Source of the DNA: Candidatus Aquidulcis sp.
GTDB lineage: Bacteria > Chloroflexota > Limnocylindria > Limnocylindrales > Limnocylindraceae
NCBI GenBank assembly: GCA_009919005.1
Contig: RGCW01000001.1
Span: 13,591 to 77,590, forward strand
Direction: 5' to 3'
Length of the DNA stretch: 64,000 nt
Under the pieces are notes generated by a model, which was not told where the DNA came from, ran no database searches, and saw only the letters and a program-made list of their open reading frames with translations. A program made the translations under genes and the position numbers. The first letter of the stretch is position 1. Each line of letters starts with the position of its first letter. This document shows, piece by piece, positions 34,359-40,789 of the stretch.

Positions 34359-36610
34359 TGGTGTTGCTCCCGCGACACACTGCGCACGCCACGAACGCGT
34401 TCTAGGCGCGCCATCAAGCGGGCGAGTTCACTGATTGAGCCGACCGCCAGGGTCATCAACATCTCCGCATTCGTTTGGCCCGTGGTTTGCACGGTAGCCG
34501 ACATAATGTTGACCTTCTGTTCAGCCACCACCTGCGTGATCTCAGTCAAGAGTCCAGTGCGATCTGTCCCCTCCACTCGAATGGTGACTGGGTAACTCTC
34601 CGTCGTCGCGGGGGTCATCTCCCACTCCACGTCAATCAGGCGCGATGCCTCTCGGGCTGACGTGGAGGCATCGCACGCAGCGAGGTGGACCGTCACACCC
34701 TTCCCCCGCGTGATGAATCCAACAATCGGATCGCCCGGTAGGGGCCTGCAGCATCGTCCAAAGCGGGTCAACAGGTCTGGCACGCCCTTCACGCGGATGC
34801 CACCCGTCCGCTCTGCAGGGGCGACGGCACTTGCACTCGCACTTAACGGCAGGAGCGATTTCGAATCATCAGCGGCAACGCCCAATCGCGAGACTACCTG
34901 TTGAGAGCCCACGGCGCCATACCCAATTGCCGCATAGAGATCGTCCACACTACCTTGATTCAACTGCTTGGCCACCTCTTCGAGCCGTTCACGACCGATC
35001 GAATCGAGCGTAGTACGTGCGAGGCGCCGCAGCTCGCGCTCAAGAGAATCGCGTCCGTGTTGAATGTTCTCATCGCGTTCTTGATGCTTGAACCACTGTC
35101 GAATCTTGTTTCGAGCCTGACGCGTGGTCGCTACATTCAGCCAATCTCTACTTGGACCGTGTTTTCCGCGAGCGGTCACCACCTCGATGATGTCGCCCGA
35201 CTTTAGTCGATACTCCAATGGCACCAAGCGATTATTCACCTTTGCGCCAATGCACCGATGTCCAATATCTGTGTGCACCAGATAGGCAAAATCCAGCGGT
35301 GTAGCGCCCGCAGGCAGCTCCTTTACATCCCCCTTCGGGGTAAACACATACACCTGATCCTGAAAGACATCGAGCCGAACGCCCTCTAGGAACTCTGAGG
35401 CATCGGTGACGTCCCTCTGCCACTCGAGCAACTGTCGCAACCAGGCAAGCTTCGCGTCATATGCAGCGTCAGGCTGCGTGCCGTCTTTATAGCGCCAGTG
35501 AGCGGCGATGCCGACTTCGGCAACCTCGTGCATAGATCTCGTCCGGATCTGAACCTCGAGTGGCCGTCCATCAAGCGCCACCACGGCGGTATGGAGGCTC
35601 TGGTAGAGGTTGTTCTTTGGGACTGCAATGTAGTCGTCAAACTGATTAGGGATAGGACGCCAGACGCTGTGCACCGCGCCTAGCGCCGCGTAGCAGTCAC
35701 GAAGGTTCTCCACGATGACTCGGATTGCGTACACGTCATAGATCTCCGAGAAGTCACTGGATCGTCGTGCCATCTTCTTGTGGATGGAGTAGAGGTGTTT
35801 TGCGCGTCCTGAAAACTCTGCATGGATCCCCGCGCGTTCCAGTTCGGGCTTGAGCACCGCGATCGCACGCTCCACATAATCAGCGCGCATATCACGCCGC
35901 AGGTCAACCATGCTTGCCAGTTCGCGATATCGATCGGGCTCCAATGCCTTGAAGGCGAGATCCTCAAGCTCCCATTTCATCTGCCAGATGCCAAGTCGCT
36001 CGGCCAACGGCGCATAGATCTCTAGGGTCTGTCGGGCAATCCGTCGCTGCTTCTCGATTGGGAGTGCCGCCAAGGTTCGCATGTTATGAAGTCGGTCACC
36101 AAGTTTGATCAAGACAACCCGAATGTCTTGGGCCATGGCCAAGAACATCTTGCGAATGTTTTCGGCGTGCTGCTCCTCGGCGCTCATTGCCGAGAACTTG
36201 CTGAGCTTCGTCACCCCATCGACAAGGGTTCCCACCTCGTCACCAAAGCGCTCCGAAATTTCCGCTGTTGTCACCGACGTGTCTTCGGGGACGTCATGGA
36301 GGAGCGCCGCCGCAAGTGTCGCGGTATCGAGTCCTAGTTCAGCCAAGATCAGCGCTGCCTCGGCGGGGTGTGTAACATACGGCTCGCCCGAGGCACGCAC
36401 CTGTGCGCCGTGCGCCTCGACCGCAAAGAGGAAGGCGTCGTCAACGATCCGAGCCCCCTCCGCGGTGGCGCTCCCTGCGGCGACCTTTTGGAGCAACGCC
36501 GCGCGAAGATCCTCTACTGGACGAGCAAGGGCGCGTACTTTGGCGATTGGATCCGCAACTGGTCGAGGTGACCGAGTTGTTTTCGCCTGTGGCTGTGGCT
36601 CAAGGCTCAT
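34355..36610 (-). CDS. relA: Bifunctional (p)ppGpp synthetase/hydrolase
   Basis: 751 aa with HD hydrolase, RelA/SpoT synthetase, TGS and ACT regions. Confidence 0.95.
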   Translation of the reverse strand: MSLEPQPQAKTTRSPRPVADPIAKVRALARPVEDLRAALLQKVAAGSATAEGARIVDDAFLFAVEAHGAQVRASGEPYVTHPAEAALILAELGLDTATLAAALLHDVPEDTSVTTAEISERFGDEVGTLVDGVTKLSKFSAMSAEEQHAENIRKMFLAMAQDIRVVLIKLGDRLHNMRTLAALPIEKQRRIARQTLEIYAPLAERLGIWQMKWELEDLAFKALEPDRYRELASMVDLRRDMRADYVERAIAVLKPELERAGIHAEFSGRAKHLYSIHKKMARRSSDFSEIYDVYAIRVIVENLRDCYAALGAVHSVWRPIPNQFDDYIAVPKNNLYQSLHTAVVALDGRPLEVQIRTRSMHEVAEVGIAAHWRYKDGTQPDAAYDAKLAWLRQLLEWQRDVTDASEFLEGVRLDVFQDQVYVFTPKGDVKELPAGATPLDFAYLVHTDIGHRCIGAKVNNRLVPLEYRLKSGDIIEVVTARGKHGPSRDWLNVATTRQARNKIRQWFKHQERDENIQHGRDSLERELRRLARTTLDSIGRERLEEVAKQLNQGSVDDLYAAIGYGAVGSQQVVSRLGVAADDSKSLLPLSASASAVAPAERTGGIRVKGVPDLLTRFGRCCRPLPGDPIVGFITRGKGVTVHLAACDASTSAREASRLIDVEWEMTPATTESYPVTIRVEGTDRTGLLTEITQVVAEQKVNIMSATVQTTGQTNAEMLMTLAVGSISELARLMARLERVRGVRSVSREQHQ

Positions 36611-39182: not shown

Positions 39183-40789
39183 TCAGGGGTCTCCGCACGC
39201 AGGATGATCGGACGTAGCCCCTTGGGCGCGACCTGCGCAACGCGTCGCAGCAGTGGCAGCGCCTCAGGACGTCGCGCTGCGATGGTGAGCGCGACGTAGG
39301 CCATCAGCCCGACGGCAGTGCCAAGTGCGGCGATCGCCGATCCCGAAAACACTCCTAACACTCTCGCATCACTGAGGAGCGGCATGGTCACCGCCGCTGC
39401 AATCGCAGCTGAAAGCGCCGACGCGAGCGTCGCGAATACCAGAACGCCAAGCACCGTGGCACCCGACAGTGTGCGCTTCTGCACCACGAGCAACAGCATG
39501 AGAAGTGACGCTTCCAGCCACGTTCCAATCGGTAGGGCGGCTGCGATCCCTACGACTCCGAGCCCTGGGACCAAGAGGGTCGCGAACATGAAGATCACCG
39601 CGCTCCCACCAAGTTCGGCTACGGTGGGCCGTGCGGTATCTCGCAGCCCATAGAAGAGTCGCACGGCGACCGAGATCACACCATGCGCCACTAGGCCAAC
39701 GAGGAGCAGCCGAAGTAGGTCGGCCGTCGCCGACGTAGCCACGGAGTTCACACTACCGCCGACGACGAGTCGAACGGCGTCATACGCGTACAGACCGCCC
39801 AGCGCCGCGATTGGCGCCATCAACCAGATCACTGATCCGATGCTCGATGTTGTGAGCGTGCGCACAGCAGCGCGGTTACCGCGTGCCTCTTCTGCGGCCA
39901 CCTTTGGCAGAACAGCGATACCGATTGATGAGGTGACAAGTGCGAGCGGTACCTGCAGCAGGGTAAATGCGTAGGACCAGATCGTGATCGCTCCAGCACC
40001 AGTCGTTCCTGCTAGCGAGATGAGGTACGCCAGAAGCATCTGCACGATAACCACCGAGCCGACGCGCGGCAGCAGCGAACGAAGCGCATCGCGGAGCAGC
40101 GGGTCGCCAAAATCCGGTCGGGCTGGACGCAGACTGCTACGCATGAGCACTGTTCCTGCGATCAAGAGCACGGCAACCGCACCGAGCGCAGTGCCAATCG
40201 CGGGACCGTACCCACCTGCCGTGGGCCCTCCTATCAAGGCTCCCGCGATCGTGCCGCCGCTGTAGACCAACCCTGTGATCGCCGTGACCCCGAACTGCGA
40301 TCGAGCCGCAGCTGCGCTGCCGCAGATTGCGGCGAGCGCTAAGGCGATGGTGGCGACGAGCAGGATGACACTCAGATCCGCAACCTCACGTTGCTGCGCG
40401 GTGGTCAAACCACCGACGAGTATTTGACTCAGTGCGTCGGCGCCGACGACGACGGTGATCGAGAGTACCGAGAGCAGTGCCAGCATCGCGGCTATCACGG
40501 AACCGACAAGCCTACGGGCACGTTCTCGCTCTCCCCGCTCCATCAGGGCGCTCAGTTGAGGAACGAGTACCGTTGCGATTGAACCGGCGGCAACCAGCGC
40601 AAACACAATATCCGGAATGCGGAACGCAGCAAGAAACGGATCCAGGGCACCACTCGCACCAAAGACGGCCACCAGGACCGAAATGCGAATCCAACCAGCG
40701 AGGCGCGAAGCGAGTGCGCCGATTGCAAGGACCAGACTGCTCCGCGCTGTACTGGCACGGGCCATGGGAGTTGCACTTGATGGCTTCAT
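39179..40789 (-). CDS. murJ: Lipid II flippase MurJ (MviN family)
   Basis: 536 aa, about 14 TM; N-terminal VLVAVFGASGALDPFLAAFRIPD is the MurJ signature region. Confidence 0.85.
   Translation of the reverse strand: MKPSSATPMARASTARSSLVLAIGALASRLAGWIRISVLVAVFGASGALDPFLAAFRIPDIVFALVAAGSIATVLVPQLSALMERGERERARRLVGSVIAAMLALLSVLSITVVVGADALSQILVGGLTTAQQREVADLSVILLVATIALALAAICGSAAAARSQFGVTAITGLVYSGGTIAGALIGGPTAGGYGPAIGTALGAVAVLLIAGTVLMRSSLRPARPDFGDPLLRDALRSLLPRVGSVVIVQMLLAYLISLAGTTGAGAITIWSYAFTLLQVPLALVTSSIGIAVLPKVAAEEARGNRAAVRTLTTSSIGSVIWLMAPIAALGGLYAYDAVRLVVGGSVNSVATSATADLLRLLLVGLVAHGVISVAVRLFYGLRDTARPTVAELGGSAVIFMFATLLVPGLGVVGIAAALPIGTWLEASLLMLLLVVQKRTLSGATVLGVLVFATLASALSAAIAAAVTMPLLSDARVLGVFSGSAIAALGTAVGLMAYVALTIAARRPEALPLLRRVAQVAPKGLRPIILRAETPE

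Follow-up and report, generated by a model that had tools for sequence, protein, structure and literature searches.

A fem-murE pair outside the dcw cluster of a genome-reduced freshwater Chloroflexota and a stem peptide with a probable diamino acid other than diaminopimelic acid

RESULTS

A 64,000-nucleotide (nt) stretch of DNA from the freshwater bacterium Candidatus Aquidulcis sp. (GenBank assembly GCA_009919005.1, contig RGCW01000001.1, positions 13,591 to 77,590, here called the window) carries three consecutive cell wall genes on its minus strand, at positions 36607 to 40789. They encode the lipid II flippase MurJ, a Fem-like aminoacyl transferase, and the UDP-MurNAc-tripeptide synthetase MurE. 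We propose, with a probability of about 0.8, that these genes are a housekeeping module, responsible for position 3 of the stem peptide in the peptidoglycan of this genome-reduced freshwater Chloroflexota, and that the overlaps between them and their neighbors are a matter of gene packing. The ligase is the primary MurE of this lineage, relocated from the division and cell wall (dcw) cluster, and likely adds a diamino acid other than diaminopimelic acid (DAP), as judged from its sequence. A preliminary description of the same DNA, made from the sequence alone, had located and identified the three genes correctly; several of its further claims are revised below.

The source assembly (G000) is a metagenome-assembled genome (MAG) of 1.1 Mb in 96 contigs that is 83% complete, and the window lies on its contig C1. 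The freshwater SL56 lineage of Chloroflexota (Limnocylindrus) has reduced genomes of ~1.3 Mb and ~63% GC, in which the coding density is raised and spacers are short (PMC6169038, PMC13212565). For comparison, we used 18 genomes of the same genus and 151 Chloroflexota genomes, of which 131 had a MurE match, and looked more closely at the congener G004 (93% complete, 20 contigs) and at G030 from a sister family (95% complete, 2 contigs). Its homologs and the corresponding loci carry the names Candidatus Limnocylindrus, Candidatus Aquidulcis, and Candidatus Limnocylindrales, all pointing to Limnocylindraceae, by which an origin in Actinobacteria, such as the Microbacteriaceae with their B-type wall, was ruled out. 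The parallel drawn earlier with the group B peptidoglycan of Microbacteriaceae therefore falls away, the host being a member of the Limnocylindraceae within the Chloroflexota. The features on which the argument rests are as follows.

39179..40789, minus strand: murJ, lipid II flippase, 536 amino acids (aa) (P0003; Pfam PF03023)
38103..39182, minus strand: fem2, FemX-like transferase with tandem GCN5-related N-acetyltransferase (GNAT) domains, aminoacyl transferase, 359 aa (P0002; PF13480, family profile, fold)
38214..38216, minus strand: codon of Lys323 of the Fem protein, motif GLYAHKASF (invariant in homologs)
36607..38103, minus strand: murE, UDP-MurNAc-tripeptide synthetase, 498 aa from ATG 38103 (P0001; TIGR01085)
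36874..36885, minus strand: EDPR motif of MurE, residues 407-410 (alignment to DNPR of DAP-adding MurE)

Identity, copy number, and position of murE

The ligase matched the murE subfamily model TIGR01085 of NCBIfam with 380.6 bits (cut-off, 257.3) and scored far lower on the models for murF (119 bits), murD (74 bits), and murC (67 bits); it also fitted MurE better than Mpl, FolC, or cyanophycin synthetase. It comprises all three Mur-ligase domains (PF01225, PF08245, and PF02875), a P-loop, GTDGKTT, at residue 115, and the conserved, putatively carbamylated lysine of the AAK motif at Lys226. An identity as MurT or CapB was ruled out by the presence of all three domains, including the N-terminal one, and by MurE being the top model. 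The longest open reading frame (ORF) extends from 36607 to 38196. Since an in-frame ATG at 38103 sits 7 nt after a GGAGG and relatives from the same family align starting from this ATG, the protein most likely begins there and has 498 aa.

The preliminary description had taken this ligase for a second, MurE-like paralog, which together with the Fem protein would form an accessory stem-peptide branch beside a canonical MurE encoded in the dcw cluster. The location of the gene, beside a Fem gene and apart from the dcw cluster, fits such an arrangement, and the source assembly leaves some room for it: its dcw cluster on contig C6 (L012:4317-16462) reads murF-mraY-murD-ftsW-murG-murB-ddl-ORF-ftsA-ftsZ, and the contig stops 49 nt upstream of murF, so that a further murE could in principle lie beyond. 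For this reason, the source genome alone could not decide the question, which was settled by the relatives G004 and G030. The dcw cluster of G004 begins mraZ-rsmH-ORF-ftsI-murF, with the stop codon of ftsI touching the start of murF and no murE between them, and in G030 the two genes are ~320 nt apart, which leaves no room for a murE. The sole murE of G004 is located on the same contig as the dcw cluster, 200 kb away from it, in the order dprA-topA-xerC-murJ-fem-murE-relA-hisS-aspS. The earlier statement that the locus lies away from any dcw cluster is thus borne out in both genomes.

Copy number gives the same answer. A single gene scored above the TIGR01085 cut-off in the source genome, and exactly one did so in 16 of the 18 genomes of the genus; no match was obtained in the remaining two (62% and 87% complete). 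Among the 131 sampled Chloroflexota genomes with a MurE match, this match was nearly always single. MurT and CapB models were absent among the NCBIfam matches listed for the ligase. A single MurE per genome and dcw clusters of relatives that lack murE identify the ligase as the primary, relocated MurE, and a paralog serving an accessory branch is extremely improbable.

Three further observations concern the dcw clusters. The cluster on C6 also lacks murC. A 358-aa ORF without an NCBIfam match (L012:6967-8043) lies between ddl and ftsA, in the place of ftsQ. In G004, a gene just upstream of mraZ (L040:10648-11958, minus strand) encodes a 436-aa protein in which an RNase H-like domain (PF13456, PF00075) is fused to a metallo-beta-lactamase fold (PF12706).

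Conservation of the fem-murE pair

The order topA-xerC-murJ-(fem1)-fem2-murE-relA(-hisS-aspS) is kept in 80 loci of Limnocylindrales. In Limnocylindrales with larger genomes, two tandem Fem genes, fem1 and fem2, lie between murJ and murE (most of the loci L051-L122); fem1 matches PF02388 (94 bits for L067:6859-7995), and fem2 is the ortholog of the Fem gene in the window. In Limnocylindrus, fem1 has been lost here, and a shortened FemAB-family gene of 277 aa is retained elsewhere, on contig C13. In one locus from another family of the same class (f3; L127), Fem genes flank murE on both sides, and the coordinates in the f3 genomes G093 and G161 agree with this.

The pairing itself extends to other classes. 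Counted over the whole phylum sample, Limnocylindria included, at least 39 of the 131 MurE-bearing Chloroflexota genomes, from 13 families, have a Fem gene on the same strand within 2 kb of murE, a lower bound with 50 further Fem matches lying outside those listed. Among the matches listed, 24 pairs come from outside Limnocylindria, and in every one of them fem precedes murE. Seven loci of this kind, all from other classes, contain no dcw genes, murJ, relA, hisS, or aspS within 8 kb. The conserved unit in the sampled Chloroflexota is thus fem followed by murE, and among the loci examined, only those of Limnocylindria also link the pair to murJ and relA. In the literature on peptidoglycan of Limnocylindria or on Fem and MurE in Chloroflexota, we found no description of a fem-murE linkage.

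The Fem-like transferase and MurJ

By itself, the 359-aa Fem protein scored above threshold only on PF13480 (Acetyltransf_6; 26 bits), and a phmmer search with it against the PDB gave no match, so that a family profile was needed. Homologs with ~40% identity carry PF02388, and some of them are named lipid II:glycine glycyltransferase. A profile built from 34 family sequences and run with hmmsearch against the PDB recovered Staphylococcus aureus FemX (6SNR, E = 2.5e-20) and Weissella FemX (1NE9 and 3GKR, ~3e-9). The AlphaFold (AF2) model of the protein is of high confidence (predicted local distance difference test, 92.8; predicted template modeling score, 0.90). When it was searched with Foldseek, ranks 1 to 8 were all FemX or FemA, with template modeling (TM) scores of 0.71 to 0.82 (Weissella FemX, 0.77 to 0.82), and ranks 9 to 19 comprised tRNA-dependent peptide synthases (Sbb17/Sba18) and aminoacyl-phosphatidylglycerol synthases. 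At the level of profile and predicted structure, the middle gene therefore encodes a protein of the Fem aminoacyl-transferase fold and family, as had been proposed for it.

Lys323, in the motif GLYAHKASF, is invariant in the 34 homologs and aligns with the lysine of the FK pair in GLWAFKKVWG of S. aureus FemX; this conservation suggests that it is the catalytic lysine. The equivalent residue of Weissella FemX, Lys305, is essential in that enzyme. From the fold of the modeled protein and the fixed place of its gene beside murE and murJ, we infer an aminoacyl-tRNA as the donor and a peptidoglycan precursor as the acceptor. A branched or bridged stem peptide would be the likeliest product, in agreement with the dedicated branch suggested in the preliminary description.

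Two other genes of the source genome are related to this family. The shortened gene on C13 (G000:C13:28732-29436; L034:901-1734, plus strand) matches PF02388 with 52 bits; it aligns with both ends of fem1 from the larger genomes, minus ~85 central residues, and may represent a minimal or decaying Fem protein. A second gene, cut by the end of its contig (G000:C33:6196-6624; L030:1444-2241, minus strand), encodes a GNAT protein matching PF13480 (79 bits); it is located directly upstream of a family 4 glycosyltransferase (GT4) gene and probably serves polysaccharide rather than peptidoglycan modification.

The product of murJ belongs to the MurJ/MviN family according to its PF03023 match (161 bits; cut-off, 27.4), with a TIGR01695 score of 185.7 bits that is below the equivalog cut-off of 235.55. 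It is the only match to this family in the whole source assembly.

The diamino acid at position 3

DAP-adding MurE enzymes carry a DNPR motif, of which the Asn and Arg contact the distal carboxylate of DAP (PMC3829189, PMC3681970). The aligned segment reads ADEDPRGEDP in the ligase studied here and TDDNPRDEDP in Mycobacterium tuberculosis. The best PDB match to the motif segment was the L/D-Lys ligase of Thermotoga maritima (4BUB; TTDDPRGEDP). Of 67 MurE proteins encoded at this locus in Limnocylindrales, 65 have EDPR, as do seven of eight fem-linked MurE proteins from other Chloroflexota classes; the eighth has EDPA. On the equivalog model for meso-DAP ligases (NF001124), the ligase scored 362 bits against a cut-off of 476, and every DAP-type and Lys-type equivalog remained below its own cut-off.

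Genes for the synthesis of DAP were sought in four Limnocylindrus genomes (G000, G004, G015, and G018; 83 to 93% complete) and in G030. No dapF was found in any of the five; the controls, genomes of Thermus and Deinococcus, were negative in this search too. For dapB, the four Limnocylindrus genomes gave no match, and the only signal in G030 was weak and below threshold. The wall chemistry of the phylum is known from isolates: Chloroflexi usually contain L-ornithine (L-Orn) (PMC3368417), Ktedonobacter has Ser/Gly in its interpeptide bridge (PMC3236041), and Nitrolancea contains Orn/Lys and lacks DAP (PMC3504966). Taken together, EDPR in place of DNPR, the failure to find dapF and dapB, and the chemotaxonomy of the phylum suggest that this MurE likely adds a non-DAP diamino acid. 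By analogy with the phylum, this would likely be L-Orn, or else L-lysine (L-Lys). As to genes that could supply either, G030 carries ArgJ and ornithine carbamoyltransferase (OTC), and a lysA-like gene falls below its cut-off in G000 and G015.

The same data have to be weighed against the simpler idea of an ordinary meso-DAP ligase next to a Fem-like protein that acts outside peptidoglycan, for instance in tRNA-dependent peptide synthesis. The best equivalog-level matches in NCBIfam are indeed DAP-ligase models, even though all are sub-cut-off, and the closest solved MurE relatives overall are of the DAP type (M. tuberculosis 2WTZ and plant MurE-like proteins). The Fem fold is also found in antibiotic pathways and in aminoacyl-lipid synthases, as the lower-ranking fold matches illustrate. 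Against this stand the lineage-wide replacement of DNPR, the lack of a recognized dapF or dapB, a Fem gene whose place directly before murE is fixed in 13 families and which here lies between murJ and murE, and top matches by fold and profile that are peptidoglycan FemX enzymes. We therefore consider a meso-DAP ligase with an unrelated Fem-like protein very unlikely. The preliminary description had set against its own proposal the case of a sole MurE with a standard active site in a wall lacking any bridge. Half of that case was found, in that the MurE is the only one; its motif is not of the DAP type, and the Fem gene argues for a bridge.

Gene packing and the link to relA

The three genes are part of a run of ten co-directional genes on the minus strand (31226-46743), comM, dprA, topA, xerC/D, murJ, fem, murE, relA, hisS, and aspS. 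The members not listed above are as follows.

45304-46743, minus strand: comM (Pfam and NCBIfam)
44324-45307, minus strand: dprA (Pfam and NCBIfam)
41748-44327, minus strand: topA (Pfam and NCBIfam)
40786-41748, minus strand: xerC/D (Pfam and NCBIfam)
34355..36610, minus strand: relA/spoT-family bifunctional (p)ppGpp synthetase-hydrolase, 751 aa (TIGR00691, 807 bits; HD_4, RelA_SpoT, TGS, and ACT)
33084..34358, minus strand: hisS (PF13393, 125 bits)
31226..33082, minus strand: aspS (PF00152, 355 bits, and GAD domain)

Read from the sequence, ATGA overlaps join xerC to murJ, murJ to fem, and murE to relA; relA and hisS share GTGA, and a 1-nt spacer separates hisS from aspS. The overlaps running through comM-dprA-topA-xerC-murJ are GTGA, ATGA, TGATG, and ATGA, and the order of these upstream genes, too, is kept in the 80 Limnocylindrales loci. 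At the fem/murE junction, which reads TTGATGA, the TGA stop of fem shares 1 nt with the in-frame ATG or 4 nt with an in-frame TTG. The ATGA overlaps described earlier are thus present at murJ/fem and murE/relA, and fem and murE overlap as well, though not literally as ATGA.

Linkage of the wall genes to relA and to two aminoacyl-tRNA synthetases had been read as a sign of coordination with the stringent response and with the supply of charged tRNA. Such a selected design draws support from the conservation of murE-relA-hisS(-aspS) across Limnocylindrales and in one genome of the second Limnocylindria family (f3), from the ATGA and GTGA junctions, and from the lack of an internal terminator-like site above background. 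The last point stems from a promoter and terminator scan of positions 31000 to 47600 that returned fewer sites than shuffled sequences and is hence uninformative. RNA-library contigs from rivers also cover the genes. In two river metatranscriptome assemblies, short, near-identical contigs of 150 to 330 nt lie over hisS, relA, murE, fem, murJ, xerC, and topA, and one of 226 nt (run X18; window 38057-38282, one mismatch) spans the fem/murE junction; another contig, probably from a DNA library, spans murE/relA. These contigs cannot show one transcript, strand, or level, DNA carry-over is possible, and uncovered parts are uninformative. The genes of the locus may be co-transcribed.

Overlapping genes are the norm in this genome, however. 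A simple gene call assigned 47 of 53 genes in the window to the minus strand and ~96% of its length to coding sequence. Just over half of the same-strand junctions (23 of 43, 53%) overlap stop to start, 19 of them by four bases and four by one, and the nine consecutive overlapping junctions from comM to hisS join functionally unrelated genes, comM, dprA, topA, and xerC being linked just as tightly as the wall genes. In relatives with larger genomes, murE and relA are 60 to 2500 nt apart, so that the ATGA coupling of the two is specific to the reduced genus. The fem-murE pairs outside Limnocylindria have no relA, hisS, or aspS in their vicinity, as described above. The aminoacyl-tRNAs known to be used by Fem enzymes are Gly-, Ala-, Ser-, and Thr-tRNA; no Fem enzyme is known to use His- or Asp-tRNA. 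In Bacillus, relA, hisS, and aspS are likewise adjacent, and wall genes are not known to lie beside them. Given that overlaps are a genome-wide norm and that relatives have wide gaps between murE and relA, the overlap with relA is best explained by packing within an old neighborhood and is not evidence of stringent-response control; a selected regulatory design is unlikely.

DISCUSSION

The analysis describes a murE that has left the dcw cluster in this lineage and now lies directly behind fem, a pairing common to many Chloroflexota families. In the pathway that we envisage, MurE would add L-ornithine, most likely in view of the chemotaxonomy of the phylum, or L-lysine as the diamino acid at position 3. 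The FemX-like enzyme would then use an aminoacyl-tRNA to begin a side branch or cross-bridge, attaching its first residue (probably Gly, Ala, or Ser) to the side-chain amine of this diamino acid, with a nucleotide or lipid precursor as the acceptor form. The single MurJ would flip the finished lipid II. The overlapping stop and start codons, at murE/relA as elsewhere, would arise from the extreme gene packing in Limnocylindrus.

Several points weigh against this interpretation. The source is an 83% complete MAG, so that gene absences are provisional. The MurE of S. aureus shows that the motif by itself does not set specificity (PMC3829189). None of the four Limnocylindrus genomes yielded an ArgJ match, and the carbamoyltransferase match is weak, which makes the assignment of L-Orn in this genus weaker relative to L-Lys. 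The Fem protein alone scores 15.3 bits on PF02388 (Pfam FemAB), below the cut-off of 24, and Arg211 of the Weissella enzyme is not conserved in the profile alignment; its acceptor or donor could thus differ from those of known Fem enzymes. The descriptions consulted for the walls of cultured Chloroflexota report their chemistry and name neither the genes nor their linkage; the wall chemistry of the class Limnocylindria is a prediction from genes. Finally, co-transcription with relA might be of functional benefit.

With neither a DAP nor an ornithine route recognizable in the reduced Limnocylindrus genomes, the diamino acid of the wall may perhaps be scavenged or made by an unrecognized route. 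This leads to a broader, tentative proposal that we regard as rather unlikely, namely, that the sole murE of Chloroflexota, outside the dcw cluster, is inherited together with fem and the EDPR motif as a fixed "position-3 module," with scavenging or an unrecognized route providing the diamino acid in Limnocylindrus. If such a module exists, it would pass on the choice of diamino acid and the branching enzyme as one unit. If scavenging takes place, an abundant free-living lake bacterium would have a cell wall dependency.

For the locus itself, the housekeeping interpretation corrects a misreading, as the MurE is not a second copy and shows no evident wiring to the stringent response. It also provides a first gene-level prediction of wall chemistry for the uncultured, globally abundant freshwater Limnocylindria, i.e., a non-DAP residue at position 3 and a tRNA-dependent branch. 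The fem-murE pairing and EDPR are simple markers that could predict the peptidoglycan chemotype from Chloroflexota MAGs, and the apparent lack of genes for DAP and ornithine synthesis suggests a possible nutritional dependency, which attempts at cultivation might have to take into account. What is known of how the MurE, Fem, and MurJ families work is unchanged; the genes are an ordinary, essential single-copy wall set.

Among characterized enzymes, the MurE of T. maritima (4BUB) belongs to the same MurE subfamily and shows the same change from Asn to Asp in the motif, with DDPRGEDP compared to EDPRGEDP here; it differs in having Asp instead of Glu at the first motif position. The FemX of Weissella viridescens (1NE9, 4II9) has the same size as the Fem protein of the window, shares the tandem-GNAT Fem fold, and likewise has no coiled-coil arm. 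FemX/FmhB of S. aureus (6SNR) is similar in its tandem-GNAT Fem fold, in profile homology, and in the conserved lysine that follows Phe or His. Both FemX enzymes are only 15 to 16% identical to the Fem protein, which has His rather than Phe before the lysine and whose acceptor is presumably the L-Orn or L-Lys stem of a Chloroflexota. The fem operons of Firmicutes (femAB, murMN, and bppA1/A2) contain dedicated cross-bridge Fem genes that are often in tandem, like fem1-fem2 of the larger-genome Limnocylindrales; they are not known to be paired with murE and murJ. The closest chemical parallel is found within the phylum, where cultured Chloroflexota (Herpetosiphon, Ktedonobacter, and Nitrolancea) have walls without DAP, with Orn or Orn/Lys at position 3 and a Ser/Gly bridge (PMC3368417, PMC3236041, PMC3504966). 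Such DAP-free, bridged walls fit a non-DAP MurE encoded together with a Fem protein.

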